Below, one piece after another: positions 1 through 10,303 of a stretch of DNA of 10,303 nucleotides; positions within the stretch are counted from its first letter, which is position 1, and each line of letters begins with the position of its first letter. The notes under the pieces are model-generated. The model saw only the letters and a program-made list of their open reading frames with translations, was not told the origin of the DNA and did no database searches. The DNA is from a virus. Lineage: Duplodnaviria; Heunggongvirae; Uroviricota; Caudoviricetes. Location: the IMG/VR virus record IMGVR_UViG_2681813186_000015; one strand, given 5' to 3'. The translations under genes and the position numbers were made by a program.

Positions 1-285
1 TTTTCGCTCAATAAGCTGGCGCTTGGCAGCGCAAACATGAGTGTGATGAATACCTGTCATGGCTGCTATCTGCGTGTTTGTGAGTCGATCCATCGGCTTA
101 TTGAATCCGTATGTCTTGCGCATGATAGCGAGCATCACCTTCAACTGCCGGACGGTTAAATCAGCCATCAGCAGACTGTCGGTAATCTCGTTAGCAACGC
201 GCATGAAACCATCTTCGGTATCTGCCACGCGATGCTCCACGACCTCCAGTTGAGGCCTGTAATCAGCTAACTTAACGACGCCCAT
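1..285 (-). CDS. O: Phage lambda O-like replication initiation protein, N-terminal part only (gene continues past the window start)
   Basis: Minus-strand reading frame open from ATG at 285-283 to the window edge; AGGAG 6 nt upstream; in-frame TGA two codons upstream of the ATG. Hand translation MGVVKLADYRPQLEVVEHRVADTEDGFMRVANEITDSLLMADLTVRQLKVMLAIMRKTYGFNKPMDRLTNTQIAAMTGI... matches the lambda O N-terminal region as I recall it (LTKRQFKVLLAILRKTYGWNKPMDRITDSQ). Absent from the ORF track because there is no stop in the window. Confidence 0.8.
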   Translation of the reverse strand, partial: MGVVKLADYRPQLEVVEHRVADTEDGFMRVANEITDSLLMADLTVRQLKVMLAIMRKTYGFNKPMDRLTNTQIAAMTGIHHTHVCAAKRQLIERK

Positions 286-433
286 GTTTCACTCCTGCTT
301 TGGCTAGTCTGTAAACACCAACAAGGCGCTCTGCGAACGCCCTGTTATTTGCTGCGGCTACCACTAATCCCTCAGGTGAATCAGGGTGTCGAATCTCTTC
401 TTTTTCCTGGTATTTCTTACGACGTTTTGTCAT
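272..433 (-). CDS. Small hypothetical protein, 53 aa, between cII and O
   Basis: ATG at 433-431 preceded by AGGAG with 5-nt spacer; open for 53 codons to TAA at 274-272, overlapping the O start by 14 nt. Translation MTKRRKKYQEKEEIRHPDSPEGLVVAAANNRAFAERLVGVYRLAKAGVKHGRR. No homolog recognised; below the ORF-track length cutoff. Confidence 0.3.
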   Translation of the reverse strand: MTKRRKKYQEKEEIRHPDSPEGLVVAAANNRAFAERLVGVYRLAKAGVKHGRR

Positions 434-465
434 AATTACTCCTGTGGATTGATCCAGTAATTCCC

Positions 466-762
466 TCAGAATTGCATATCAATTTGCTTAAAATCCTCGG
501 TGGCAGCCGGGGATTTTTTCTTTGTGATTTCATCAAGCGCATACTTAAAAGCCCTGCTAATCGGACTGATGTCTGATGCCATTCCGAAAGCACACAAGAC
601 CGAAGCAATAAACCGCCAGTCCGTTCTGCTTATCTTCGATTCATGACAGCCAATCATCTTTGCCAGACCGCGCTGTGTAAGCGTTGACAGGTTGATGAGT
701 AAATCTGTTTCTGCGCGATCAACGTCGCGCTGTGATAGTTTGCTGTAACTTGTTCGTTCCAT
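466..762 (-). CDS. cII: CII-like transcriptional activator (lysogeny establishment)
   Basis: 98-aa ORF; C-terminus ...ITKKKSPAATEDFKQIDMQF resembles lambda CII C-terminus (...ILTNKKRPAATERSEQIQMEF, from memory); central HTH LTQRGLAKMIGCHESKISR. Lies immediately downstream of cro on the same strand, as in lambda. Confidence 0.85.
   Translation of the reverse strand: MERTSYSKLSQRDVDRAETDLLINLSTLTQRGLAKMIGCHESKISRTDWRFIASVLCAFGMASDISPISRAFKYALDEITKKKSPAATEDFKQIDMQF
495..523 (+). terminator. Rho-independent terminator on the plus strand inside the 3' end of cII; candidate 3' end of an oop-like antisense RNA
   Basis: Stem CCTCGG (495-500) pairs with CCGGGG (507-512), 5 Watson-Crick pairs plus one G-U, loop TGGCAG, followed by ATTTTTTCTTT (513-523). 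It is antisense to cII, which is where lambda places the oop terminator. Confidence 0.45.
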
Positions 763-771
763 TTCTTAAGA
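740..771 (+). promoter_or_regulatory. Candidate PRE-like CII-dependent promoter (plus strand, antisense to cro)
   Basis: TTGC-N6-TTGT direct repeat at 740-753, close to the lambda CII site TTGC-N6-TTGC, overlapping the first codons of cII on the opposite strand as in lambda; possible -10 TAAGAT at 766-771. Confidence 0.35.
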
Positions 772-847
772 TTTCCAATAGTGAATAGTTAGTTGAAAGG
801 TATGCGTGGAAACGCATATGGCCTTAGTTGGTCAGATATCTTGGGAC

Positions 848-893
848 TCGCTTTTCAGCGACGTAGGACGAATGTCCGTTGTTACAAAGAGCG
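848..893 (-). promoter_or_regulatory. nutR-like N-utilisation site (boxA, intervening hairpin, boxB) between cro and cII
   Basis: Read on the minus strand: boxA-like CGCTCTTTG (plus coords 885-893), hairpin GGAC-ATTC-GTCC, then boxB-like hairpin TCGCT-GAAA-AGCGA (plus coords 848-861). Near-colinear copy of the nutL-like element at 3497-3542. Confidence 0.55.
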
Positions 894-903
894 GCTCCGC
901 TTA

Positions 904-1119
904 TTAAGCGGCTTTGTGCTCCGGCGGGAACACGTCATCAAGACTTACTTTTGCGCCTAACTTGTTTAGACACGCAACAAGAGCACGGCATGTTTTAAGG
1001 TCTGGGAAGCGACGACCAGATTCCCAATGTCCGATAGCTCCCTGTGTGCATCCAACTGCCTTAGCAAGTGTTGTTTGAGAGATATTCAGTGACTCTCGAT
1101 ATTTTCGTAGGTTGCTCAT
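904..1119 (-). CDS. cro: Cro-like HTH repressor (Cro/C1-type)
   Basis: 71-aa ORF; ATG at 1119-1117 preceded by GGAGGG; HTH ISQTTLAKAVGCTQGAIGHWESGRR closely resembles the HTH of the divergent CI-like protein ([25 protein letters not shown]); divergent to the repressor across a 110-bp operator region. Confidence 0.8.
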   Translation of the reverse strand: MSNLRKYRESLNISQTTLAKAVGCTQGAIGHWESGRRFPDLKTCRALVACLNKLGAKVSLDDVFPPEHKAA

Positions 1120-1229
1120 ATGCCCTCCATAGTAACCACGAATAAAAAATACAATATGTACTTCTCAAATACAAGTAAAAATACACATTGTGCATGGATG
1201 GTTCCAGTACAGAGCGTAATAATAAGGAC
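1120..1229. promoter_or_regulatory. Divergent OR-like operator/promoter region (PR towards cro, PRM towards cI)
   Basis: Two 15-bp near-palindromes: AATACAATATGTACT (1148-1162) and ATACACATTGTGCAT (1182-1196), with TACA/TGTA half-sites. Candidate PR on minus strand: -35 TTGTAT (1174-1169), 17-nt spacer, -10 TATTTT (1151-1146). Candidate PRM -10 AATAAT (1218-1223) would start transcription near the cI ATG (leaderless, as in lambda). Confidence 0.55.
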
Positions 1230-1889
1230 ATGAAAATGAAATGGTATGAACTGGCTAGATCCAGAATGAAAGAGCTCGGCATAACTCAAGAGAAGTTAGC
1301 CGAAGAGCTAGGTATGACGCAGGGTGGAATTGGACACTGGTTGCGCGGATCTCGTCATCCATCTCTTAGTGATATTGGTGTGGTGTTTAAATACCTTGGT
1401 ATTGATAACATATCATTCAACCACGACGGGACATTTTCACCTGTTGGCGAATACTCATCGGCCCCAGTTAAAAAACAATATGAGTACCCTGTTTTTTCTC
1501 ATGTTCAGGCTGGGATGTTCTCTCCAGAACTCAGAACCTTTACCAAAGGTGATGCGGAGAGATTGGTAAGCACAACCAAAAAAGCCAGTGACTCTGCATT
1601 CTGGCTTGAGGTTGAAGGTAACTCAATGACCGCACCAACAGGTTCCAAACCTAGTTTTCCTGACGGGATGTTAATTCTGGTTGACCCTGAGCAAGCTGTT
1701 GAGCCCGGCGATTTCTGCATAGCCAGACTTGGTGGTGATGAATTTACCTTCAAGAAACTGATCAGGGATAGCGGTCAGGTGTTTCTACAACCACTAAACC
1801 CGCAATATCCAATGATCCCATGCAATGAGAGTTGTTCCGTTGTGGGGAAAGTTATCGCCAGCCAATGGCCTGAAGAGACGTTTGGGTAA
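1230..1889 (+). CDS. cI: CI-like prophage repressor, N-terminal HTH plus C-terminal S24 (LexA-like) self-cleaving peptidase domain
   Basis: [24 protein letters not shown]; Ala-Gly cleavage site in HVQAGMFSP; catalytic Ser in EGNSM and Lys in FTFKKL. The track start at 1188 is a TTG; first ATGs are at 1194, 1230 and 1236. 1230 was chosen because it fits a leaderless PRM transcript; 1236 has better spacing from AAGGA (1224-1228). Confidence 0.9.
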
Positions 1890-2207
1890 AGAGGATAGAT
1901 GGAGTTTAATGGCCATGAGTATCAAGCGGTCAAAAAGAAGTTCATCTATTCATTGAAAGCATAAGGCCATCTGAGTATATCCGTAATGATCTGGATATTG
2001 TCTATAACATCAATGACCGGACGATAGATATCGGTGAGCAGCGTCCTGTATGGCAGGGTGAGGCAGGTGAAAAAACGTCCTGCCATCAACAAGAATCAAG
2101 TGCATCCGCTCTCTGGACAGATGGAAAATTTATTGGATGCAAAAAGATATGAAATAACACCTGTATAGCACGGAGCTTTCTCTGACCGATGCACTTGAAG
2201 TTGTTAG

Positions 2208-2232
2208 GGCTGACCCAGCCTGCTGTTTCTTT
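2208..2232 (+). terminator. Candidate Rho-independent terminator, first of a tandem pair downstream of cI
   Basis: Stem GGCTG (2208-2212) pairs with CAGCC (2216-2220), loop ACC, followed by TGCTGTTTCTTT. Confidence 0.4.
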
Positions 2233-2263
2233 AGGTAAGAGAAAAGAGATTTAGGAGATGAAA

Positions 2264-2290
2264 GGTCGCAGAGGTGCGGCCTTTTTTATT
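2264..2290 (+). terminator. Rho-independent terminator downstream of the cI transcript
   Basis: GGTCGCA (2264-2270) pairs with TGCGGCC (2275-2281), 7-bp stem with one G-U, loop GAGG, followed by TTTTTTATT (2282-2290). Confidence 0.6.
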
Positions 2291-2329
2291 GAGAGTGGAT
2301 CTTGAACGGAAATTCTCAAGACTTGAGTC

Positions 2330-2358
2330 TTGCATGCAAATCAATTCCTGGATAAACT
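2330..2358 (+). promoter_or_regulatory. Candidate sigma70 promoter for the 173-aa accessory gene
   Basis: -35 TTGCAT (2330-2335), 17-nt spacer, -10 TAAACT (2353-2358). Overlaps palindromes CTCAAGaCTTGAG (2315-2327) and TGCATGCA (2331-2338). Confidence 0.3.
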
Positions 2359-2390
2359 CGATCTGAGTCAATAACTTAGAGAGAGAGCAA

Positions 2391-2912
2391 ATGGCAAAGT
2401 CAAACGTTAGCGTGCAGGCATTCAAGGACTTCCTTGAAGAGCTTATGTCGCTGAACATAATGAAGGAGGCCACCGCTCGAAATTTAAAAAACTCATCCGC
2501 TCGCCTCTTAACGGTAGTCCAAGAAGAGGAAATGGGTGATGTTACTCAGCTTGATGTGAATGAGCTTGCCGAGCGATACATCAACGCAACTGAGCCGAAG
2601 CCTAGCGACAGCAGCATTACTGCATATAAAAGCCGCATGGAAAGTGCAATCAAAAAGTTTGTAGCTTTCCAGTCTGGTGAAGAAATCCCATACACTCCGA
2701 TTGACAAAGAATCCAGTGAGGAAAAAGATTTGACTGGCGAACCAACAAAAGTCGAAGGCAAGGCTAATGCACTTCATACCTATGATCTTCCAGTAGTTCT
2801 TCGACCTGAATCAGGGGTTACAGTAACGATTAAAGGCATTCCTAACGATATCACAAACGAAGAAGCCGAACGCATCTCTTCAATTCTGAAGGTTTACGTT
2901 CGGCCTCAATAA
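2391..2912 (+). CDS. Hypothetical acidic 173-aa protein of unknown function, inserted between cI and pL (accessory 'moron' gene)
   Basis: Complete ORF with a GAGAG-type ribosome-binding site; candidate own promoter upstream and hairpin downstream; lies after the cI terminators and before pL. Appears more AT-rich than neighbouring phage genes (by eye). Soluble, rich in D/E, no motif I can assign. Confidence 0.6.
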   Translation: MAKSNVSVQAFKDFLEELMSLNIMKEATARNLKNSSARLLTVVQEEEMGDVTQLDVNELAERYINATEPKPSDSSITAYKSRMESAIKKFVAFQSGEEIPYTPIDKESSEEKDLTGEPTKVEGKANALHTYDLPVVLRPESGVTVTIKGIPNDITNEEAERISSILKVYVRPQ

Positions 2913-2924
2913 TGCAAAAGCATT

Positions 2925-2963
2925 CAGCACAATGTCCAACTCCCCAGTCCGACATTGATGCTG
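2925..2963 (+). other. Stem-loop just downstream of the 173-aa gene (possible weak terminator or 3' stabiliser)
   Basis: CAGCAcAATGTC (2925-2936) pairs with GACATTgaTGCTG (2951-2963), about 11 bp with a small bulge, 14-nt loop, followed by a short TTT. Confidence 0.35.
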
Positions 2964-3085
2964 TTTAACCAGAGCCTCCAAAAGGAGCCCTTGTTAAGGT
3001 ACACAATATTTGCGATGTAACCTTAGCGCGTCTGGTACATTTTTTCAAGCGGTTGTAGGGCTGCCGCCAATATGAGAAAACACAG

Positions 3086-3208
3086 ATGTCTACATACAAT
3101 TTGAATGACCAATTCGATCGAGAAGTTCATGTGAATGCCTATGAACGGATAAGGTATGGAAATCTTGAACATGTGTGTGAGCATTATCGCTCAAGGCCAC
3201 ACCGCTAA
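3086..3208 (+). CDS. Possible small ORF (39 aa), or a short non-coding transcript, ending at a strong terminator
   Basis: ATG 3086 to TAA 3206-3208, translation MSTYNLNDQFDREVHVNAYERIRYGNLEHVCEHYRSRPHR; weak ribosome-binding site; possible promoter TTCAAG-18-CAATAT upstream; strong terminator 8 nt after the stop. Coding status uncertain. Confidence 0.2.
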   Translation: MSTYNLNDQFDREVHVNAYERIRYGNLEHVCEHYRSRPHR

Positions 3209-3215
3209 TCATCAA

Positions 3216-3244
3216 CCCGGCCTCCATGCCGGGTTTTCTTTTCC
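3216..3244 (+). terminator. Rho-independent terminator (plus strand) just upstream of the pL-like promoter
   Basis: CCCGGC (3216-3221) pairs with GCCGGG (3228-3233), loop CTCCAT, followed by TTTTCTTTTCC. The minus-strand version has no U-tract. Confidence 0.65.
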
Positions 3245-3378
3245 TCTCGCCCAAAAAAACACATAACCAATTGTATTTATTGGAAAATAAATAGATACAA
3301 CTCACTAAACAACGCAATTCTGATCTCTCCTTACATCGCCGAGGCAATACACCCACGCTAAAAAACAATACTATTAAA

Positions 3379-3451
3379 TACAAAGCGTTGTAAAAAACCG
3401 CCCCGTTTTAGAACAAATTGTATTGACCAAGTGAAGTACATATCGTACTAT
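3379..3451 (+). promoter_or_regulatory. pL-like early-left promoter with candidate OL operators
   Basis: -35 TTGACC (3423-3428), 17-nt spacer, -10 TACTAT (3446-3451). Near-palindromes TACAAAGCGTTGTA (3379-3392) and AGTACATATCGTACT (3437-3451) share TACA/GTA half-sites with the OR-region palindromes. Confidence 0.55.
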
Positions 3452-3496
3452 TTAACCATCAGCAGGACGCTGGAAGCCAAATGGAACAGACTGGCA

Positions 3497-3542
3497 GGCT
3501 CTTTAAACAACGTCGACTCTCGACTACGTGGCTGAAAAGCCA
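3497..3542 (+). promoter_or_regulatory. nutL-like site (boxA, hairpin, boxB) in the leader of the N-like gene
   Basis: boxA-like GGCTCTTTAA (3497-3506; compare consensus CGCTCTTTA), hairpin GTCGA-CTC-TCGAC, boxB-like hairpin TGGCT-GAAA-AGCCA (3529-3542). Same architecture and near-identical boxB to the nutR-like element on the other strand. Confidence 0.6.
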
Positions 3543-3640
3543 GATCACCCAACCACATAAGCTGTGGGATGCAATGCCGAAGCAACCGTCTCAGGAGGAG
3601 CTTCGAGATTGCATCGCCAAAGTTTATTCGGGAGGAATCT

Positions 3641-3913
3641 ATGTCCAGAAAAACAGAATTTAAAGGCACCGCAGCTTCTCGCCGTAGAGCTCGTCGCGCA
3701 AACCTGCAAAGTCAGGAGGCGATTAGCTCCGACAAACTACACAGGCCAACCCCATCACGAGTGGTCTTACAATGCAAACGCAAACCAGCAATGAGAGCAG
3801 AAGTAATAACACTGACAACGTTGACCAGAAAATATGAAGGCTCAACTTGTCTTCCAAATGTAGCTCTTTACGCGGCAGGCTACCATAAATCCAAACAACT
3901 GACAGCAAGATGA
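3641..3913 (+). CDS. N: N-like transcription antitermination protein (arginine-rich motif)
   Basis: Internal ATG at 3641 with GGAGG (3631-3635) 5 nt upstream; 90 aa; N-terminal arginine-rich motif GTAASRRRARRANLQ resembles the boxB-binding motif of lambda N (…QTRRRERRAEKQAQW…); first gene after the pL-like promoter and nutL. The upstream part of the track ORF (from 3569) overlaps the nut site and was dropped. Confidence 0.6.
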   Translation: MSRKTEFKGTAASRRRARRANLQSQEAISSDKLHRPTPSRVVLQCKRKPAMRAEVITLTTLTRKYEGSTCLPNVALYAAGYHKSKQLTAR

Positions 3914-3971
3914 CTTGTGTTGGTCGCCAGAAAATGAAATTAGGCAGCAAACCACTTATTTGAGGTGATAT

Positions 3972-4223
3972 ATGGAATTTCATGAAAGTGCGATTTGTGA
4001 TTTTCGCGCTAACGCAAATTCAGTAAAACCACAGCCAATTGCAGTTCTTTTAAAAACAATGGGTGCGTGGGCTGTTTTATGCTTCGCCGCTGACGACACT
4101 GACGCAAGAATGGCAATAGGACAAGAGATGGAGATGGACCCGACAAACGATGAATTCATAATTTATGGCGCTCCATCTAATTACTTACTTGATACCTGCA
4201 ACATTTACAACAAGGCTGCCTGA
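3972..4223 (+). CDS. Hypothetical protein, 83 aa
   Basis: ATG 3972 with GAGG 6 nt upstream; sits where lambdoid phages carry ral-type accessory genes; no homology recognised. Confidence 0.5.
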   Translation: MEFHESAICDFRANANSVKPQPIAVLLKTMGAWAVLCFAADDTDARMAIGQEMEMDPTNDEFIIYGAPSNYLLDTCNIYNKAA

Positions 4224-4269
4224 TGGTGGCCTTTATTTTTGGCATAAACAACAGAATAAACACAGCACT

Positions 4270-4297
4270 GTGTATTCATTCCAACGAGTGAATACAC
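4270..4297 (+). repeat. Perfect 9-bp inverted repeat with 10-nt loop
   Basis: GTGTATTCA (4270-4278) and TGAATACAC (4289-4297); no U-tract after it. Confidence 0.5.
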
Positions 4298-4359
4298 GGA
4301 GCAATGTCGCTCGTAACTGAACAGGAGCCGACTTGTTCTGATTATTGGAAATCTTCTTT

Positions 4360-4385
4360 GCCCTCCAGTGTGAGGGCTTTTTTAT
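4360..4385 (+). terminator. Rho-independent terminator (tL1-like) within the early-left operon
   Basis: GCCCTC (4360-4365) pairs with GAGGGC (4372-4377), loop CAGTGT, followed by TTTTTTAT. Expected to be read through by N-modified RNA polymerase. Confidence 0.7.
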
Positions 4386-4449
4386 ATGCATACCAATAAC
4401 GCTTCACTCGAGGCGTTTTCGTTATGCAATCAAATATAAGGAGTTACCC

Positions 4450-4584
4450 ATGATGCACTTTCAGCTCGCGGGTAGCGGCGTCATGTCCGCTTTCTACCCG
4501 CACGAATCTGAATTATCACGCCAAGTTAAACAATTAATCAGAGCAGCAAAGAAACAACTGGAGGCGTTATGCGCAATGAAATAG
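4450..4584 (+). CDS. cIII: CIII-like small protein (candidate FtsH inhibitor protecting CII), 44 aa
   Basis: ATG 4450 with AAGGAG (4438-4443) 6 nt upstream; MMHFQLAGSGVMSAFYPHESELSRQVKQLIRAAKKQLEALCAMK resembles lambda CIII (…YAIAGWPVAGCPSESLLDRITRKLRDGWKRL…, from memory); position after N as in lambda and P22. The track ORF start at 4345 spans the terminator and was rejected. Confidence 0.5.
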   Translation: MMHFQLAGSGVMSAFYPHESELSRQVKQLIRAAKKQLEALCAMK

Positions 4585-4721
4585 CCATTAATCACCAGAT
4601 GCTTCGTGCTGCACAGAACAAAGCAGTAATAGCCCGATTTATTGGTGATTCAAAAATGTGGCTTGAAGCAAATAAAGCGATGAAATCAGCTATCAACCTT
4701 CCGTGGTATCGCAGGAAATGA
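4569..4721 (+). CDS. kil: Kil-like small protein (tentative), 50 aa
   Basis: ATG 4569 with GGAGG (4560-4564) 4 nt upstream, overlapping the cIII-like stop; MRNEIAINHQMLRAAQNKAVIARFIGDSKMWLEANKAMKSAINLPWYRRK; the IARFIGDSKMW segment resembles the FIGDEKM region I recall in lambda Kil; gene order cIII then kil as in lambda. Confidence 0.4.
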   Translation: MRNEIAINHQMLRAAQNKAVIARFIGDSKMWLEANKAMKSAINLPWYRRK

Positions 4722-4796
4722 GTTTTACAGATAACTGGTCAGACGAAGAATTCATTCGTCAGATGAAAGATTTAATCGGTAACGAAGGAGATATTC

Positions 4797-4967
4797 ATGT
4801 CACTTGCAACCACAGTGAAGGAGAGCAAGTTACAGAGACGCATGTACACGCAGAAAGCTCTCTGGTATCGCCATAATGGCGACCGCGAAGGAATGCGGGT
4901 ATGCCTTAATTTGTCCCGAGTCGAAGTATTAAATCAGCGTTATTTTCTTGGGCCATGTCCATTCTGA
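4797..4967 (+). CDS. Hypothetical small protein, 56 aa
   Basis: ATG 4797 with AAGGAG (4785-4790) 6 nt upstream; MSLATTVKESKLQRRMYTQKALWYRHNGDREGMRVCLNLSRVEVLNQRYFLGPCPF; stop 4965-4967 is followed 8 nt later by the start of the annealing-protein gene. A competing 52-aa ORF (4718-4876, other frame, ATGA overlap with the Kil-like stop) has weaker Shine-Dalgarno support. Confidence 0.4.
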   Translation: MSLATTVKESKLQRRMYTQKALWYRHNGDREGMRVCLNLSRVEVLNQRYFLGPCPF

Positions 4968-4975
4968 GGTGAATT

Positions 4976-5683
4976 ATGGATTTGAACAAATTCGATGAGC
5001 CATTCAGCCCTGAAGATATCGAATGGCGAATACAGCAAAGCGGTAAAACACGCGATGGAAAGGTGTGGGCTATGGTGCTGGCTTATGTCACGAACAGGGC
5101 AATCATGAAACGCCTGGATGATGTTTGCGGCAAAGCAGGATGGCGCAATGAATACCGCGATATTCCCAACAACGGCGGCGTTGAATGCGGCATATCAATA
5201 AAGATTGATTCCGAATGGGTAACCAAATGGGATGCTGCTGAAAACACGCAGGTAGAAGCCGTCAAAGGTGGTCGTTCCGGTGCAATGAAGCGCGCTGCCG
5301 TTCAGTGGGGAATCGGTCGGTATCTGTATAACCTTGAGGAAGGTTTCGCACAAACATCTCTCGATAAAAAGCAGGGGTGGCACAGGGCAAAACTGAAGGA
5401 TGGAACAGGATTTTACTGGCTCCCTCCATCGCTTCCGGGATGGGCAATCCCAGCATCAGATAACAAACCATCACCAGAAAATACCAACCAGAAATCTCCA
5501 TCGGTTGACTGCGAACAAATCCTGAAAGACTTCAGCGATTATGCGTCAACAGAAACTGACAAGAAAAAACTCATCGAGCGTTATCAGCGTGACTGGCAAT
5601 TAATGGCTGGCAACGAGGAAGCGCAGGCTAAATGCGTTCAGGTAATGAACATCAGAGTTAACGAACTAAAACAGGCGGCATAA
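4976..5683 (+). CDS. Rad52/22-family single-strand annealing protein (phage recombinase, Sak/Erf functional analogue)
   Basis: 235 aa; IMKRLDDVCGKAGWRNEY and KGGRSGAMKRAAVQWGIGRYLY match conserved Rad52 N-terminal-domain signatures; GAGG upstream; directly followed by ssb. Confidence 0.8.
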   Translation: MDLNKFDEPFSPEDIEWRIQQSGKTRDGKVWAMVLAYVTNRAIMKRLDDVCGKAGWRNEYRDIPNNGGVECGISIKIDSEWVTKWDAAENTQVEAVKGGRSGAMKRAAVQWGIGRYLYNLEEGFAQTSLDKKQGWHRAKLKDGTGFYWLPPSLPGWAIPASDNKPSPENTNQKSPSVDCEQILKDFSDYASTETDKKKLIERYQRDWQLMAGNEEAQAKCVQVMNIRVNELKQAA

Positions 5684-6190
5684 ATGGCAAGCAGAGGCGT
5701 AAATAAGGTGATTATCCTTGGTCGGGTAGGACAAGACCCGGAAGTTCGATACTCACCATCAGGAACAGCGTTCGCTAACCTGACAATAGCCACGTCAGAA
5801 CAATGGCGAGATAAAAATACTGGCGAGCAAAAGGAATTGACTGAATGGCATCGTGTTGCTGTATCCGGGAAACTGGCTGAGGTCGTGGGGCAGTATGTGA
5901 AAAAAGGTGATCAGATTTATTTCGAAGGAATGCTGAGAACCAGAAAGTGGAAAGACCAGTCAGGGCAAGACCGTTACACAACCGAGGTTCATGTCGGAAT
6001 TAATGGCGTGATGCAAATGCTTGGCGGCATTGGCGACAGCAAACAACAAGCAGCCAGCAGGCAATCACAGAAGCCACAGCAGCAATCATCACCAGCACAA
6101 CACAACGAACCTCCGATGGATTTTGACGACGATATACCCTTTGCACCAGTAACTCTCCCCTTCCCTCGTCACGCTATTCACGCAATTTAA
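5684..6190 (+). CDS. ssb: Single-stranded DNA-binding protein (SSB), with a 15-aa extension beyond the canonical DDDIPF terminus
   Basis: [23 protein letters not shown]…TEWHRV…[19 protein letters not shown]…MDFDDDIPF is near-identical in pattern to E. coli SSB; the ORF continues [15 protein letters not shown] before TAA at 6188-6190. Start abuts the upstream stop (TAAATG). Confidence 0.9.
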
Positions 6191-6198
6191 GGACTTAC

Positions 6199-6747
6199 AT
6201 GAATCACTTAATGGTTGACCTTGAAACAATGGGCAACGGGCCATACGCGCCAGTTATTTCTATTGGGGCGGTATTCTTTGACCCGAATACCGGAGAAACA
6301 GGAGAAGAGTTCTCGGTAAATATCTCGCTTGAGTCATCAATGCGATATCGGGCGCGTCCTGACGCTTCAACGATTTTATGGTGGATGGAACAGAGTGAAG
6401 AAGCCAGAAAATCGCTAACCAGCAACACTCAAGAGCTTTCAACGGCTCTTTCATGGTTATCTGAATTCATCATAAAGAACGCTAACCACAAATTCGTTCA
6501 GGTTTGGGGGAATGGAGCATCATTTGACTGCGTTATTCTCCGAAACAGTTATTCGCTGACAGGGCAGCCAGTTCCGTGGCAGTGGTGGAATGACCGCGAC
6601 GTAAGAACAATCGTCGAACTTGGGAAGGTAATAGGATTCGACCCTAAGCGAGATATGCCATTCAAAGGAACTCGCCACAACGCGCTTGATGATGCCATTC
6701 ACCAAGCCAAATACGTTTCAGCGATCTGGAAAAAGTTAGCTAAATAA
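6199..6747 (+). CDS. DEDDh-family (DnaQ-like) 3'-5' exonuclease
   Basis: 182 aa; Exo I motif MVDLETMG, Exo II WGNGASFD, Exo III RHNALDDAIHQA (H-x4-D); AAGGA 5 nt upstream of ATG 6199. Confidence 0.75.
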   Translation: MNHLMVDLETMGNGPYAPVISIGAVFFDPNTGETGEEFSVNISLESSMRYRARPDASTILWWMEQSEEARKSLTSNTQELSTALSWLSEFIIKNANHKFVQVWGNGASFDCVILRNSYSLTGQPVPWQWWNDRDVRTIVELGKVIGFDPKRDMPFKGTRHNALDDAIHQAKYVSAIWKKLAK

Positions 6748-6763
6748 TCAACAGGAGAAAACC

Positions 6764-7060
6764 ATGCCAGCGCCTCTGTATGGTGCGGATGACGCGCGCC
6801 GCTGTTCCGGCAATTCCGTATCGGAGGTGCTGGATAAATTCAGGAAAAACTACGACAGGATAATGTCGCTACCGCAGGAAACGAAAGAGGAAAAGGAATT
6901 TCGCCACTGTATATGGCTTGCAGAGAAAGAAGAACGCGAGCGAATTTACCAGACATCAATCCGACCATTCCGCAAAGCCACATATACCCACTTCCCTGAA
7001 TATATCGACCCGCGCCTGCGTAATTACCGCTCACGCTATGGCGCTATCAGTAATGGTTGA
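6764..7060 (+). CDS. Hypothetical protein, 98 aa
   Basis: ATG 6764 with AGGAG (6753-6757) 6 nt upstream; basic and acidic stretches; no homology recognised. Confidence 0.6.
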   Translation: MPAPLYGADDARRCSGNSVSEVLDKFRKNYDRIMSLPQETKEEKEFRHCIWLAEKEERERIYQTSIRPFRKATYTHFPEYIDPRLRNYRSRYGAISNG

Positions 7061-7070
7061 GGAATTAACA

Positions 7071-7361
7071 ATGAAAACAATGAAGCTAAACATCGACCTC
7101 GGCAAATACGTTATTACCGGAACCAAACACGACCTGATTCTTAGTGAAAGAGGAATTATCAAAGAAGGTGAGAATGCAGGGAAAGAAACACTAAGTCGTA
7201 TCGGTTATTACAGCAAGTTTGAGCATCTGGTTAAAGAGTTATGCAACCGTGAAATTCTGTTATCTCAGGCGCAGACGTTACAGGATATTCAGCAGCATAT
7301 CGAGACTGTATGTGTGTCACTTAGCATGGCTATTGACCAGTTCGTGGAGAGTAAATCATGA
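7071..7361 (+). CDS. Hypothetical protein, 96 aa
   Basis: Internal ATG 7071 with GAGGAA (7059-7064) 6 nt upstream, right after the previous stop; the track ORF start at 6918 overlaps the preceding gene and was rejected. Confidence 0.6.
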
Positions 7362-7522
7362 GGGGACTTGCATACAATCCCGGCATTCTTCCGGCAGAAA
7401 TGATTATTCGCCAACGCGTAAAGCCAATGCCATCGAGAGAGGAATTGCTTAAGAGAAATTCTTTTCCATCAGTGAATCAAAACAAATATCTGAATGCGAT
7501 GTGGCGGAGTGGGAAGAAATGA
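7358..7522 (+). CDS. Hypothetical small protein, 54 aa, translationally coupled on both sides
   Basis: ATG 7358 overlaps the upstream stop (ATGA); GGAGAG 7 nt upstream; its stop TGA 7520-7522 overlaps the next start ATG 7519 (ATGA); [54 protein letters not shown]. Confidence 0.4.
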
Positions 7523-8019
7523 AACAAATGACACTAATTGAGATGGATGGTTTTCTGAAAGGTGAATGCATCCCACGAGATTTAAAGGTTAACGAAACAA
7601 ACGCTGAATATCTTGTCCGTAAGTTCGGTGAACTTGAATCAAAACTAGAAACGGCGTTGCGGGAGTGTCGTTCTGCTGGAATCACGATTGATAACCTTGA
7701 GGCCAAGTGCGCGGCGCTGGTAGCGGAGAGTGCGGGGATGAAGAAGTTCTGCAAAGACGCTGCATTCGATGCCGATTACGAAGCAGAGCTAGGTATGGAG
7801 CGTGGTGGATTCAGTGATGCGCTTAACGAAATCAAAACCCCAGCCACCGATGCTTTCCTGGCTGAAGTCCGGGCTAAGGCGTTTGATGACCTTTGCGCGG
7901 CGTTCGTTAAGCACGCGTCGGTGTCCGGGCTGGACGATGGCGACTGCGTTACGGTGAAAGAGGCGACTGACGCTCTGCTGCATTGTGCGGAACAGCTTCA
8001 CGAGGGAGTGCATTCATGA
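7519..8019 (+). CDS. Hypothetical protein, 166 aa
   Basis: ATG 7519 chosen over the track GTG start at 7501; acidic, Ala-rich; no motif recognised. Confidence 0.6.
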
Positions 8020-8249
8020 GCAACCTACTACCATGTCCATTCTGTGGCGGCGCAGCGCACGTTGCCAGCGAAGCAGATCACCCTGAATATGGCTCTGGCG
8101 GTCGATTCTATTTCGTTCGATGCGGTACGTGTCGCGCTCAATCTGGTAGCAAATATGCAGCGCCTGGAAATGACTGCGCGATTTTTTATTCAGAGGTTAG
8201 AGCAGAGTGGAATCAGCGAGCAAAGGAGGCAACCAGTGAGCGAAATTGA
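8016..8249 (+). CDS. lar: Lar-family restriction-alleviation protein (small zinc-ribbon protein)
   Basis: ATG 8016 overlaps the upstream stop (ATGA); GAGGGAG 7 nt upstream; 77 aa with CPFCGG … CGTC … AEWNQRA, matching the Lar family pattern as I recall it (CPFCGG N-terminal knuckle, WNRRA-type C-terminus). Confidence 0.65.
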   Translation: MSNLLPCPFCGGAAHVASEADHPEYGSGGRFYFVRCGTCRAQSGSKYAAPGNDCAIFYSEVRAEWNQRAKEATSERN

Positions 8250-8832
8250 CTATCAGGCACTGCGTGAGGCGGCGGAACGTGCAATTCCAGCAATGGAACG
8301 CCTGTTAATGTTGCCAGTTGATGATGATTTGTTAAGTGAACAGGAACTTAAAGATTACGGTGTGGATATTGATGCGCTCAACGCCTTCAAATTTCTGGCC
8401 GGACCAGAAACCGTGCTGGCACTACTGGATGAGATCAACGCATTAGAGGAAACGCGTATCAACGATGTTTGCCGTATTGCGGAACTAACAAAACAACTGG
8501 AGTCGGCAAAATCAAAACTCAACGAGCAGCGTGAATATTACGAGGGAGTAATCTCGGATGGGAGTAAGCGTATTGCAGAACTGGAAAGCAACGAAGTCCG
8601 TGAAGACGGAAATCAGTTTCTTGTTGTTCGCCACCCCGGGAAAACTCCTGTCATCAAGCACTGCACTGGTGACCTGGAAGAGTTTCTGCGGAAGTTAATC
8701 GAACAAGACCCGTTAGTAACTATCGACATCATTACGCATCGCTATTACGGGATTGGCGGTCAATGGGTTCAGGATGCAGTTGAGTATCTGCATATGATGT
8801 CTGACGCAGGTATTCGCATCAAAGGAGAGTGA
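8236..8832 (+). CDS. Hypothetical protein with predicted coiled-coil segment, 198 aa; start uncertain
   Basis: GTG 8236 preceded by AAGGAGG (8223-8229) with 6-nt spacer, overlapping the Lar stop by 14 nt; earlier in-frame ATGs (8089, 8155) lie inside the Lar gene; central heptad-like region INALEETRINDVCRIAELTKQLESAKSKLNEQ. Confidence 0.5.
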   Translation: MSEIDYQALREAAERAIPAMERLLMLPVDDDLLSEQELKDYGVDIDALNAFKFLAGPETVLALLDEINALEETRINDVCRIAELTKQLESAKSKLNEQREYYEGVISDGSKRIAELESNEVREDGNQFLVVRHPGKTPVIKHCTGDLEEFLRKLIEQDPLVTIDIITHRYYGIGGQWVQDAVEYLHMMSDAGIRIKGE

Positions 8833-8833
8833 T

Positions 8834-9382
8834 ATGACCACTATAACCGATAAGAAACAGTATCCCAGCAAGCAATATCTTAATGAGCTGATCACCAACA
8901 TAGAGTTTGCTGCAAGGGCACCAGTTGAAGTCGTGAGAGCGATGGCAGCAGAGCTACAGAAGCGGCGCGAAGCTGATAGTGCAGAACCTGTAAGCCAAAC
9001 TTACAAGTTGCCAGTTAATACACCTTGCCAAGATGCGCCAGCCCATATCTGGCTGCAAACGGCTGGAGTATGGCCAGAAGATGGCGAGTTAAGCGAATTA
9101 ACGTGGTGCAGCCACAATCAGCACCATGATGACACGCTATATGTTCGAGCTGACCTTGTGAATGGCAACTCTCCGGTAATTCCGGATGGTTGGATAAGCT
9201 GTAGTGAGCGAATGCCGGATAAGTTAATTCCGGTAATGGTCATGTATGAAGACGGTGAGATGTGGTCTGCAATGTGGAATGGTAATCGCTGGGATGATGG
9301 CACCGAATATCCGGATCCGCACTCAGTTACGCACTGGCGTGAAATGCCAGCAGCACCGAAGCAGGAGGTTAACCGTGGCTAA
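8834..9382 (+). CDS. DUF551-like phage protein
   Basis: 182 aa; ATG 8834 with AAAGGAGAG upstream; C-terminal …SVTHWREMPAAPK resembles the conserved DUF551 C-terminal signature (…THWMPLPEPP) as I recall it. Confidence 0.6.
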   Translation: MTTITDKKQYPSKQYLNELITNIEFAARAPVEVVRAMAAELQKRREADSAEPVSQTYKLPVNTPCQDAPAHIWLQTAGVWPEDGELSELTWCSHNQHHDDTLYVRADLVNGNSPVIPDGWISCSERMPDKLIPVMVMYEDGEMWSAMWNGNRWDDGTEYPDPHSVTHWREMPAAPKQEVNRG

Positions 9383-9659
9383 CCTGCAACTTGCCGTTAA
9401 AGGTGAATACTTCGATGCCATGATTCGCGGAGAGAAAACGGAAGAGTATCGCCTGTGTAATGACTACTGGAAAAAGCGCCTCGTTAACCGTAAGTATGAC
9501 CGCCTGATTATCACAAAGGGATATCCGAAGCGCGACGACTTCAGTCGCAGAATTGATGTCCCGTATGACGGATATGAAATCAAGACAATCACACATCCCC
9601 ACTTCGGCGATAAACCGGTAAAGGTATACGCGATAAAGGTGAATATCAGCAATGAATAA
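9375..9659 (+). CDS. Hypothetical protein, 94 aa
   Basis: GTG 9375 preceded by AGGAGG (9363-9368) with 6-nt spacer, overlapping the upstream stop; the track ORF start at 9246 lies inside the previous gene. Confidence 0.5.
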   Translation: MANLQLAVKGEYFDAMIRGEKTEEYRLCNDYWKKRLVNRKYDRLIITKGYPKRDDFSRRIDVPYDGYEIKTITHPHFGDKPVKVYAIKVNISNE

Positions 9660-9730
9660 CAATCCTCGCATTCGCGGGGATTTCTTTTATCTGAACTCGC
9701 TACGGCGGGTTTTGTTTTATGGAGATGATT

Positions 9731-10030
9731 ATGGCCTGTTCAACATTCAACCCTCTAACGTTACAGAAATACCAGCCAGACCCTGAAGATTTATGCTCAC
9801 TGTGTGGCGGAAATCATGGTAAAGCAGCCATGATCGAATGTAAGGACAAAATCCACATTTGCCTTAATTGCGTTGATGTCCTCGTTGATATCAAAAATGA
9901 GAGAGAAGATAAAAAGCGTAGCGAGGCTGTTCGCGCCTTAGATTCATGGATGCGAGATGGATATAGTGCCGCGCAAATTTATGACTTAGCAATATCAAAA
10001 GGCGAAATACCAGGAGTACGCATCGAATAA
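9731..10030 (+). CDS. Hypothetical Cys-rich protein (possible zinc-ribbon), 99 aa
   Basis: ATG 9731 with GGAG (9721-9724) 6 nt upstream (alternative ATGs at 9719 and 9725); CSLCGG … CLNC spacing suggests a four-Cys metal site. Confidence 0.55.
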   Translation: MACSTFNPLTLQKYQPDPEDLCSLCGGNHGKAAMIECKDKIHICLNCVDVLVDIKNEREDKKRSEAVRALDSWMRDGYSAAQIYDLAISKGEIPGVRIE

Positions 10031-10072
10031 GACGTAACCGATATTCGAATTGAAGAACTGAAAGAACACCAA

Positions 10073-10096
10073 GCCGCCTGATGGCGGTTTCTTTTT
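10073..10096 (+). terminator. Rho-independent terminator upstream of the excisionase-like gene
   Basis: CCGCC (10074-10078) pairs with GGCGG (10083-10087), loop TGAT, followed by TTTCTTTTT. Confidence 0.6.
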
Positions 10097-10111
10097 GCCT
10101 GGAGAATTAAG

Positions 10112-10303
10112 ATGACCGATACCAGCCTGATTCCTGAGAAAGAAGTGATGAACAAGCTCGGTGTTTCATCACGTCAGACAATCTGGAACTATACCAAACG
10201 GCACGGATTTCCGAAGCCAGTCAGAACCCACCCCAAATCATACCTTCGTGAAGCTGTTGAAGGGTGGATTCTTAACGGTGGCGTTAATCAGAAATGCTCC
10301 TGA
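10112..10303 (+). CDS. AlpA-family phage transcriptional regulator / excisionase-like protein
   Basis: 63 aa; ATG 10112 with GGAG 7 nt upstream; LIPEKEVMNKLGVSSRQTIWNYTKRHGFPKPVR is the typical AlpA/Xis-type HTH pattern; sits at the distal end of the early-left operon where xis precedes int in lambdoid phages. Confidence 0.75.
   Translation: MTDTSLIPEKEVMNKLGVSSRQTIWNYTKRHGFPKPVRTHPKSYLREAVEGWILNGGVNQKCS

Follow-up and report, generated by a model that had tools for sequence, protein, structure and literature searches.

The window analysed here, a stretch of 10,303 nucleotides from a Caudoviricetes record of IMG/VR (IMGVR_UViG_2681813186_000015), carries four consecutive genes on its + strand between positions 4976 and 7060. 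The first gene (4976..5683) encodes a Rad52/Sak-family single-strand annealing protein of 235 aa (Pfam PF04098, phrog_1097), the second (5684..6190) a phage SSB of 168 aa (Pfam SSB, phrog_44, TIGR00621), the third (6199..6747) a DexA-like DEDDh protein of 182 aa with predicted 3'-5' exonuclease activity (Pfam PF16473, phrog_255), and the fourth (6764..7060) the anti-RecBCD protein Abc2 of 98 aa (Pfam PF11043, phrog_656). The preliminary description had recognised the first three genes as a recombination module at 4976-6747. These three genes were found at the coordinates that it gave on the + strand, but the abc2 gene was missed, and the module in fact extends to position 7060. The genes are separated by gaps of 0, 8, and 16 nt, and an RBS is present at each. 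The RBS of the exonuclease gene overlaps the ssb stop codon, and that of abc2, which starts 16 nt past the exonuclease gene, is strong. A search of the + strand from 4976 to 7060 found no promoter-like or terminator-like site. The tight gaps, the RBSs, and the absence of such an internal site support co-transcription of the module as the probable mode of expression.

The flanking genes place the module in a familiar context. PHROG matches in the ORF list identified, all on the + strand, a CI repressor (1188-1889), an N-like antiterminator (within 3569-3913), CIII (within 4345-4584), and Kil (4569-4721). The genes of the operon run in the order cI - N - cIII - kil - module - ea genes - xis. The window carries the early-left operon of an E. 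coli (pro)phage that is lambdoid or P22-like. Two small overlapping ORFs on the + strand (4703-4876 and 4797-4967) lie directly upstream of the annealing protein gene; they matched phrog_2123 (1.4e-41) and phrog_1723 (9.4e-36) and resemble gp42.1 and gp42 of HK97. The same pair is also annotated in Sf6, HK75, and epsilon34. The label given to these two ORFs in PHROGs is 'recombinase'.

The assignment of the first two proteins rests on profile scores. The product of 4976-5683 matched Pfam Rad52_Rad22 (PF04098) over residues 4-136 with an E-value of 5e-26 and 91.9 bits (cut-off, 20.3 bits), and phrog_1097 at 3.5e-130. By the score of its N-terminal domain it is a member of the Rad52/Sak annealing family, with a predicted annealing activity; no close homologue with a solved structure was found by sequence. 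The exact protein is present on at least 1000 contigs. The product of 5684-6190 matched Pfam SSB (1.6e-36), NCBIfam TIGR00621 (4.5e-49), and phrog_44, and possesses the OB fold and an acidic DFDDDIPF motif. This motif is internal and not C-terminal, because it is followed by a 15-aa extension.

The third protein matched Pfam PF16473 (Rv2179c-like) at 2.8e-73 and 245.8 bits, where the gathering threshold is 27 bits, with residues 2-177 aligned to positions 1-177 of the 177-position profile, and phrog_255 ('exonuclease') at 2.1e-86. The Exo I/II/III residues D7, E9, D110, H160, and D165 were invariant or nearly so in alignments of 11 and 31 homologues; the three Exo motifs read earlier from the sequence are thus intact on careful alignment. 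The catalytic residues also match up with those reported for T4 DexA, namely D7, D119, H186, and D191 (PMC12153337). The AlphaFold2 model had a mean pLDDT of 93.1, and its top structural matches in Foldseek were all DEDDh enzymes. The protein belongs to the DEDDh (DnaQ-like) 3'-5' exonuclease superfamily, with Exo I (DxE), Exo II (D), and Exo III (H-x4-D) present in that order on an RNase H-like fold. An RNase_T/DnaQ-type Pfam model gave only 20 bits on it. None of the three proteins exonuclease, annealing protein, and Abc2 is covered by an NCBIfam model.

The nearest characterised relative of the exonuclease is T4 DexA, a DNA exonuclease, and not the RNase after which the Pfam family is named. 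In a phmmer search against the PDB, the exonuclease matched only DexA (8KEL, 6.8e-14), and ranks 1-5 of the Foldseek search against the PDB were all DexA chains (4e-12 to 2e-10; best TM, 0.79). The Foldseek E-values were 4e-12 for DexA, 3.5e-6 for RNase T, and about 8e-5 for RNase AS (Rv2179c); Orn/REXO2, RNase AS, and the CBASS-associated exonuclease Cap18 were among the lower-ranked neighbours. DexA (8KEL, 8KEN) is similar to the present enzyme in its DEDDh active site and in being encoded by a phage, and is the best PDB match by both sequence and structure. However, the identity is only about 27-34%, DexA is longer (227 aa) with extra loops, and its tetramer residues S87 and D90 are not kept here. 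DexA also differs in its setting: T4 is virulent and has 5hmC DNA, and dexA adjoins dda rather than genes for an annealing protein or SSB. A part in intron homing, which is a form of DNA-break repair, has been attributed to this 3'-5' DNA exonuclease of T4. An identity with EcD, the E. coli DexA homologue of 'HREX' (Kang et al.), was considered and rejected, as the EcD primers encode MIDTET... and ...TIPETYD at the two ends and the present protein reads MNHLMVDLET... and ...WKKLAK. RNase AS of M. tuberculosis (Rv2179c; 4OKE), the founder of PF16473, has the DEDDh fold and the Pfam family in common with the exonuclease but is a distant relative (20% identity in Foldseek; no phmmer match at E < 0.01) and is a bacterial poly(A)-specific RNase, not a phage DNA-metabolism gene.

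The fourth gene accounts for what had appeared to be a mismatch of polarity. Abc2 matched Pfam PF11043 over its full length (4.7e-61) and phrog_656 (1e-55). In lambda Red (Exo-Beta-Gam) and Rac RecET, as in the window, annealing-based recombination is encoded early-left together with an inhibitor or modifier of RecBCD. In these two systems, however, the annealing protein is in complex with a PD-(D/E)XK 5'-3' exonuclease of the phage, and no lambda-Exo-like or RecE-like protein was found by Pfam or PHROG among the ORFs of the module and the flanking window that were scanned. Whereas Gam blocks RecBCD, Abc2 redirects it (PMC12315714). PMC5928155, which cites Murphy 2000, and PMC12315714 describe the P22 and HK620 modules as encoding no nuclease, with Abc2 turning host RecBCD into a 5'-3' resection activity. 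The phage can therefore dispense with a 5'-3' exonuclease of its own because Abc2 redirects the host enzyme, and with abc2 adjoining the exonuclease gene the "polarity mismatch" is gone. For modules of this class, as P22 and HK620 illustrate, it is a wrong premise that the annealing protein must be paired with a 5'-3' exonuclease from the phage. The P22 (Erf-Abc1-Abc2) and HK75/HK620 (annealing protein-SSB-Abc2) modules resemble that of the window in the pairing with Abc2, the hijacking of RecBCD, and the site in the PL operon after cIII/kil. [quoted passage not shown]

The region 4976-7060 is a four-gene Rec module of the 'ES18 functional type', which consists of an annealing protein, an SSB, a nuclease, and an anti-RecBCD protein. 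Zheng, Casjens, Davidson, Amundsen and Smith (Genome Res 2025) described under this name a Rec module with a "DnaQ-like 3'-to-5' nuclease"; they regarded the DnaQ-type gene of epsilon34 as a 'very likely legitimate Rec module member' and also called it curious. The Rec modules of epsilon34 (gp36-gp33), mEp235, and mEpX2 have the identical four genes in the same order, with essentially no difference from the window. At the DNA level, the four-gene module is 98.8% identical to those of mEp235 and mEpX2 and 90% identical to those of epsilon34 and g341c. The arrangement was found in 12 phage records, including these four phages, NM-3, and CurroJimenez, and in 137 of 5426 complete E. coli genomes (about 2.5%); E. 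coli strain 2313 has a prophage whose module matches that of the window at 100% identity. The genes flanking the module in the early-left region are mosaic, but the module itself is not. The exact exonuclease protein occurred in the order Rad52 - SSB - exonuclease - Abc2 at all ten non-redundant genomic places (10/10). The exonuclease had been singled out as an unusual partner of a Rad52-like protein; with six named phages, 137 complete E. coli genomes, and a published Rec-module type, it proved to be largely a standard one. The arrangement is neither rare nor new, being already known from sequenced model phages, E. coli genomes, and the literature. The present analysis adds the status of the exonuclease gene as an optional cassette, together with the existence of two sister clades with differing gene neighbourhoods.

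The cassette consists of the exonuclease gene and its 8-nt leader (6191..6747, + strand) and is absent from phage HK75, whose module is otherwise 98.4% identical to that of the window. The junction in HK75 reads ...caatt TAA tcAGGAGaaaaacATG(abc2), with the cassette missing. In the window it reads ...caatt TAA, the cassette (ggacttacATG...TAA), and tcaacAGGAGaaaaccATG(abc2), with the cassette flanked by the stop codon of ssb and the RBS of abc2. The annealing protein gene is present in 391 of the 5426 complete E. coli genomes, and 137 of these 391 (about 35%) have the full module. About 35% of the modules have the exonuclease gene, which forms a clean cassette between ssb and abc2 and is optional. 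The occupancy of the slot differs between phages, and Sf6 has an endonuclease gene there.

The neighbourhood of the gene was compared across 80 IMG/VR loci, of which 37, with an exonuclease at least 71% identical to that of the window, form the Rec-module clade. A recognisable annealing protein gene lies upstream of the exonuclease gene in 35 of the 37 loci: Rad52-like in 27, AAA_24/Sak4-like in 4, Erf in 3, and Sak4 with an HK620-type SSB in 1. At 34 of the 37 loci the exonuclease gene directly follows that for an SSB, counting three at which an endonuclease gene is inserted between the two. The order Sak4-SSB-exonuclease was also seen in Providencia prophages. In a neighbour-joining tree, calculated without support values, the Rec-module exonucleases form one clade, sister to an int-adjacent clade. 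The sister-clade exonucleases are about 60% identical, and their genes adjoin xis/int at loci that lack recombination genes. Some of the sister-clade loci have a dNMP phosphatase gene (phrog_318) in the vicinity.

The mechanism that we propose for the module, with a probability of about 0.5, combines resection by Abc2-RecBCD, coating by SSB, and annealing by the Rad52-like protein with 3' trimming by the DEDDh enzyme as an optional accessory step. On the basis of published P22 work, Abc2 would bind RecC and convert host RecBCD into a Chi-independent machine for resection of the 5' strand. The phage SSB would coat the 3' single-stranded tails left by resection, and the Rad52-like protein would anneal complementary strands. 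The DEDDh enzyme, presumably Mg2+-dependent and related to DexA, may then trim 3' tails and flaps that are unannealed or lack homology, together with single-stranded DNA in surplus, and such trimming would leave annealed 3' ends able to prime synthesis or be ligated. With its predicted 3'-5' polarity, this DEDDh enzyme would not be able to carry out the 5'-3' resection and should therefore have another task. To this extent the earlier suggestion of a different role holds, with end processing as the most plausible one; the anti-defence role or degradation of nucleic-acid signals suggested alongside it found no positive support, the PADLOC match being at 20 bits and DexA the nearest relative. 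The most likely role of the exonuclease is 3'-end trimming that supports annealing-based recombination, for which we infer the substrate, the polarity, and a cooperation with SSB. The clade-wide synteny with SSB and annealing proteins, the tight packing of the operon, and the intact catalytic residues are in favour of the proposed mechanism. Against it, the exonuclease is dispensable for this type of module, as HK75 is without it and Sf6 has an endonuclease instead, the full module is present in only about 35% of the E. coli genomes with the annealing protein gene, and the sister clade occurs in contexts without recombination genes.

A more specific version, which we put forward only tentatively, is that the exonuclease of the Rec-module clade is an SSB-coupled 3'-tail/flap nuclease that travels with ssb as a two-gene unit, whichever annealing family (Rad52-like, Erf, or Sak4) is present. 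E. coli ExoI and ExoX, which are 3'-5' DNases, have the DnaQ superfamily and the polarity in common with the window exonuclease, although no close sequence relationship to either was detected. ExoI acts on SSB-coated single-stranded DNA via the C-terminal tip of SSB and provides a model for an SSB-coupled exonuclease. According to PMC12315714, which cites Lovett 2011, host DnaQ-family 3'-5' exonucleases generally reduce recombination, a point against the trimming mechanism.

It is rather doubtful that the gene is instead an autonomous cargo gene in a permissive slot, which would do a generic DexA-like job, the conversion of host or competitor DNA into nucleotides for replication, and take no part in recombination. 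A scavenging role is documented for DexA, and the clean, gene-sized insertion/deletion bounded by the stop codon of ssb and the RBS of abc2, its optional presence in about 35% of modules, and the free-standing HNH or other endonuclease genes in equivalent slots are all as expected for cargo. The same applies to the sister clade, which adjoins xis/int without recombination genes and in some cases lies near the gene for dNMP phosphatase. On the other hand, location in a Rec module is a property of the whole clade in our sample according to the neighbour-joining tree, and SSB is kept directly upstream in 34 of 37 loci despite the changing annealing family, which is unexpected for random insertion. 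In addition, massive degradation of host DNA is not known from temperate phages of this type.

Two further possibilities would direct the enzyme at other targets. It is improbable that the protein is an anti-defence or RNA-directed enzyme, which as an exoribonuclease or an oligonucleotidase would destroy the oligonucleotides of immune signalling, the msDNA/RNA of retrons, or further small nucleic acids. The Pfam family is named after an exoribonuclease (Rv2179c/RNase AS), and Orn/REXO2, RNase AS, and Cap18 are among the lower-ranked structural neighbours, but the DNA exonuclease DexA is the closest by several orders of magnitude in E-value, and the stable neighbours of the gene are DNA recombination proteins. 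A search for literature support for an anti-defence or RNA-directed role found none. Nothing functional was found on mEp235, the work on Rv2179c was mycobacterial only, and the Gabija preprint covers lambda-Exo-type nucleases only. PADLOC gave on the module only a generic Cas-associated DEDDh match at 20 bits (2e-4), and the partner genes are absent. Very improbable is a defence or superinfection-exclusion nuclease against modified-DNA phages resembling HREX, in which EcD digests 5hmC-containing T4 DNA and, when plasmid-borne, protects E. coli from T4 (PMC12153337). DexA homologues are widespread in Enterobacteria (PMC12153337), and W152 of DexA, one of the two 5hmC-recognition residues, corresponds to W130 here. 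The other, D169, aligns to V144 in MAFFT, but its absence is only tentative because the alignment is gapped around V144. The gene is part of the PL operon, which CI represses, and has no separate promoter-like site; it should therefore be silent in the lysogen, which does not fit a defence gene of this kind, and no specific PADLOC match was obtained.

If the gene improves annealing-based recombination, it is a candidate addition to recombineering toolkits. Should the SSB-coupled reading be true, the exonuclease and its partners would be a viral counterpart of Rad52-dependent annealing with 3'-flap removal. The trimming mechanism, if true, would mean that phage annealing pathways need 3'-end clean-up besides 5' resection.

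The three ORFs of the preliminary description proved to be real and correctly located, all on the plus strand: a Rad52_Rad22 annealing protein (4976–5683, 235 aa, Pfam E = 5e-26), an SSB (5684–6190, 168 aa, E = 1.6e-36), and an exonuclease matching PF16473 (Rv2179c-like) over its full length (6199–6747, 182 aa, E = 2.8e-73). The genes are separated by gaps of 0 and 8 nt. The Exo motifs of the exonuclease are also all present, with D7, E9, D110, H160, and D165 invariant or nearly so in two alignments. The protein scored only 20 bits against the generic RNase_T/DnaQ Pfam model, and its AlphaFold2 model had a mean pLDDT of 93.1. A fourth gene had been missed: abc2 begins 16 nt past the exonuclease stop codon with a strong AGGAG ribosome-binding site and encodes a full-length Abc2 anti-RecBCD protein (6764–7060; PF11043, 4.7e-61; phrog_656, 1e-55).

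The presence of abc2 changes the interpretation of the module. The proposal that the exonuclease is not the resection nuclease stands, but the polarity mismatch claimed with respect to lambda Exo and RecE overlooked abc2. P22 Abc2 binds RecC and blocks Chi activation (PMC12315714), and, according to the account of Murphy 2000 in PMC5928155, it turns RecBCD into a 5'-3' exonuclease preparing ends for the phage annealing protein. The modules of P22 and HK620 encode no nuclease of their own (PMC12315714), and Pfam and PHROG scans of window ORFs detected nothing resembling lambda Exo or RecE. Because resection is outsourced to the host through Abc2 and RecBCD, the polarity is not paradoxical. We also considered whether such an exonuclease is a standard partner of the annealing protein; the arrangement turned out to be a standard, published, and optional variant of the module.

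The window corresponds to the immunity region together with the early-left (PL) operon, and its (pro)phage is an enterobacterial one of lambdoid or P22-like type. Genes resembling cII (466–762) and cro (904–1119) were recognized by eye from the translation on the minus strand. Pfam and PHROG searches with the ORF list identified the CI repressor (1188–1889, plus strand), an N-like antiterminator (within 3569–3913), CIII (within 4345–4584), Kil (4569–4721), Ead/Ea22, DUF551, and other 'ea' genes 3' of the module, and an excisionase (10112–10303). Relatives of HK97 gp42.1 and gp42 lie directly 5' of the annealing protein gene (4703–4967). These two small ORFs match phrog_2123 and phrog_1723, each of which carries the PHROGs label 'recombinase', and they are read in different frames with an overlap of about 80 nt; Sf6 gp30 and gp29 are annotated as the same overlapping pair. 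By analogy, they may be accessory factors comparable to Arf. The longest ORF at 6918–7361 starts with TTG, encodes 147 aa, and shares sequence with the 3' part of abc2, but since its phrog_154 match is confined to residues 52–146, the true gene probably starts near 7070, just after abc2. The whole window (1–10303) occurs in none of the complete E. coli genomes searched, the best being OkiPb01713 (74% covered, 99.6% identity). Prophages of O157:H7 have the window flanks in common, with lambda exo and bet replacing this module, which illustrates whole-module swapping of Rec systems.

The exonuclease gene is an optional cassette of the module. HK75 possesses the same annealing protein, SSB, and Abc2 (98.4% identity), but its ssb-abc2 junction is empty: it reads TAA tcAGGAGaaaaacATG, compared with TAA [ggacttacATG...exo...TAA] tcaacAGGAGaaaaccATG in the window. 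The same slot holds the gene of a 159-aa endonuclease in Sf6 and both this endonuclease gene and the exonuclease gene in CurroJimenez, and in some prophages an HNH_3 gene separates ssb from the annealing protein gene. Among 5426 complete E. coli genomes, megablast at a coverage of at least 80%, which counts close alleles only, found the full four-gene module in 137, the annealing protein gene in 391, and the window exonuclease allele in 151. The exonuclease is thus present in about 35% of these modules (137 full modules versus 391 annealing genes), and about 91% of the copies of its allele lie inside the module.

Some further features of the annealing protein and SSB were observed. The SSB C-terminus (6143–6190) has the canonical acidic tip ...MDFDDDIPF followed by 15 extra residues, an extension shared with the SSBs of HK75 and epsilon34. 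The SSB of Sf6 and CurroJimenez (157 aa) terminates at ...DIPF and is followed by the 159-aa endonuclease (phrog_2340; Sf6 gp26, positions 2692–3171 of the Sf6 locus L033). It looks as though a mobile endonuclease gene, on insertion or deletion, left its scar precisely at the SSB tip. E. coli SSB needs a free terminal Phe for partner binding; if the same holds here, the extended SSB may be unable to bind its usual partners. At the module position corresponding to 4976–5683, one comparison locus (L068, 3360–3983) encodes an Erf-family annealing protein (PF04404) whose last ~70 residues match positions 182–251 of phrog_1097, the C-terminal part of the Rad52-like family (E = 6e-11), suggesting that the unrelated annealing cores of Erf and Rad52-like proteins share a shuffled partner-interaction domain. 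A 33-nt stretch of the annealing protein gene (5123–5155; nt 148–180 of the gene) is 100% identical to a CRISPR-annotated region of E. coli JNE151685 (NZ_AP027258.1, 3118551–3118583), so that the recombinase gene appears to be the target of a host spacer.

The best 80 loci from an IMG/VR scan with the exonuclease, which represent its closest relatives only, were classified by their neighbours using clustering, Pfam and PHROG searches, and tblastn. They fell into two groups, which formed cleanly separated sister clades in a neighbour-joining tree drawn without bootstrap values. In the Rec-module clade (37 loci whose exonuclease shares at least 71% identity with that of the window), a recognizable annealing protein gene lies upstream in 35 loci: Rad52-like in 27, AAA_24/Sak4-like (phrog_1366) in four, one of which is without SSB, Erf (PF04404) in three, and Sak4 (phrog_2872) with an HK620-type SSB (phrog_743) in one. 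The two remaining loci are probably truncated by contig ends. SSB directly precedes the exonuclease in 34 of the 37 loci, three of these with an endonuclease gene between, and a window-like Abc2 lies downstream in 28. Providencia prophages show the order Sak4, SSB, and exonuclease (67% identical). In the int-proximal clade (43 loci, 60–62% identical), no annealing protein, SSB, or Abc2 was found in the 3 kb upstream of the exonuclease gene or the 1.5 kb downstream of it; DUF551-type genes precede the exonuclease, which is followed directly by xis and int. Prophages of Salmonella and E. coli, as well as Serratia phage OS31 and Vibrio phage K237, have the gene in this position too, and sporadic DnaQ-type genes near int have been mentioned (Zheng et al., PMC12315714). 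These contexts argue that the function of the Rec-module clade is tied to SSB and an annealing protein, not to Rad52-like proteins in particular, and show that the predicted basic activity would be generic enough for use elsewhere. Salmonella prophage loci (L011–L018, 1066–4570) share a conserved order of YfdP, DUF2303, dNMP phosphatase (phrog_318), DndB-like protein, exonuclease, xis, and int; the neighbouring 5'-deoxynucleotidase hints at a possible nucleotide-salvage role for the int-proximal clade.

A sequence search of the PDB with the window exonuclease matched only T4 DexA (8KEL and 8KEN, 6.8e-14). In the Foldseek search, DexA chains occupied ranks 1–5 (TM 0.79, E = 4e-12 to 2e-10), followed by RNase T from rank 6 (3.5e-6), Cap18 at rank 14 (1.5e-5), REXO2 at rank 17 (~2e-5; other Orn-type enzymes at ranks 25–50), and the Pfam namesake RNase AS (Rv2179c) at ranks 39–40 (~8e-5). 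The relatives are mostly T-even dexA genes (~30% identity), but numerous phages infecting Serratia, Vibrio, Pseudomonas, Rhodobacter, and Providencia, both temperate and virulent, have relatives as well. Because DexA is closest both by sequence and in Foldseek, DNA is the better guess for the substrate despite the 'exoribonuclease' label. In two long profiles, phrog_2082 (823 positions) and phrog_20376 (530 positions), it is the C-terminal end that the exonucleases of the window and of Providencia match, suggesting longer proteins with a C-terminal exonuclease domain. In an E. coli prophage (ON470580.1; L028, 1106–3549), a 455-aa CDS (2182–3549) adjoining xis/int has such a domain in its C-terminal ~175 aa (PF16473, 58% identical to the window protein); directly before it lies a separate 306-aa CDS (1106–2026) matching PF06630 Exonuc_VIII, the RecE N-terminal region. 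The 5'-3' nuclease of a RecE-like scaffold may thus have been replaced by a 3'-5' DEDDh domain.

We propose, with a probability of about 0.5 for the mechanism as a whole, that the exonuclease trims 3' ends. Abc2-modified RecBCD would resect the 5' strands, the phage SSB would coat the 3' tails, and the Rad52-like protein would anneal complementary strands. The DexA-like enzyme would then remove excess single-stranded DNA, or 3' tails or flaps that are non-homologous or have stayed unannealed, leaving 3' ends free to prime synthesis or undergo ligation. The mechanism draws on the identities and synteny presented here and, for the Abc2/RecBCD step, on the P22 work; the rest we infer. The optional presence of the gene and the existence of the int-proximal clade would also fit a gene that merely occupies a permissive slot as autonomous 'cargo' or for scavenging, but the synteny across the whole Rec-module clade makes this rather unlikely.

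An RNA-directed or signal-directed anti-defence enzyme is suggested by the family name and distant structural neighbours only; with DexA by far the closest relative and DNA recombination genes as neighbours, we regard it as improbable. Defence against 5hmC phages in the manner of HREX appears still less probable. The counterpart of DexA W152 is present (W130), but V144 is aligned to DexA D169, and EcD, the E. coli DexA homologue acting in HREX, is a different protein. Moreover, the gene belongs to the PL operon, which is repressed, and no promoter-like site was found inside the module; a PADLOC scan gave no specific match.

The arrangement has been described before and is common. Over its 2085 nt, the module shares 98.8% identity with phage mEp235, 98.6% with mEpX2, 90% with Salmonella phages epsilon34, g341c, and NM-3, and 100% with a prophage of E. 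coli strain 2313; BASEL phage CurroJimenez has the module with an additional endonuclease gene, and proteins identical to the exonuclease and to the annealing protein are each recorded on at least 1000 contigs. In their analysis of 325 lambdoid phages, Zheng, Casjens, Davidson, Amundsen and Smith (Genome Res 2025, PMC12315714) counted 25 phages whose modules combine annealing protein, SSB, nuclease, and anti-RecBCD protein, next to 27 nuclease-free ones of the HK75 type (their Table 1). They used epsilon34 to illustrate a nuclease whose gene is tightly packed and which is 'very likely legitimate' as part of a Rec module, and remarked that enzymes of this kind 'curiously, usually inhibit homologous recombination'. 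What was found here therefore rediscovers a published module, and its remaining interest lies in the biochemical role of the exonuclease and in the split between clades and their genomic contexts.
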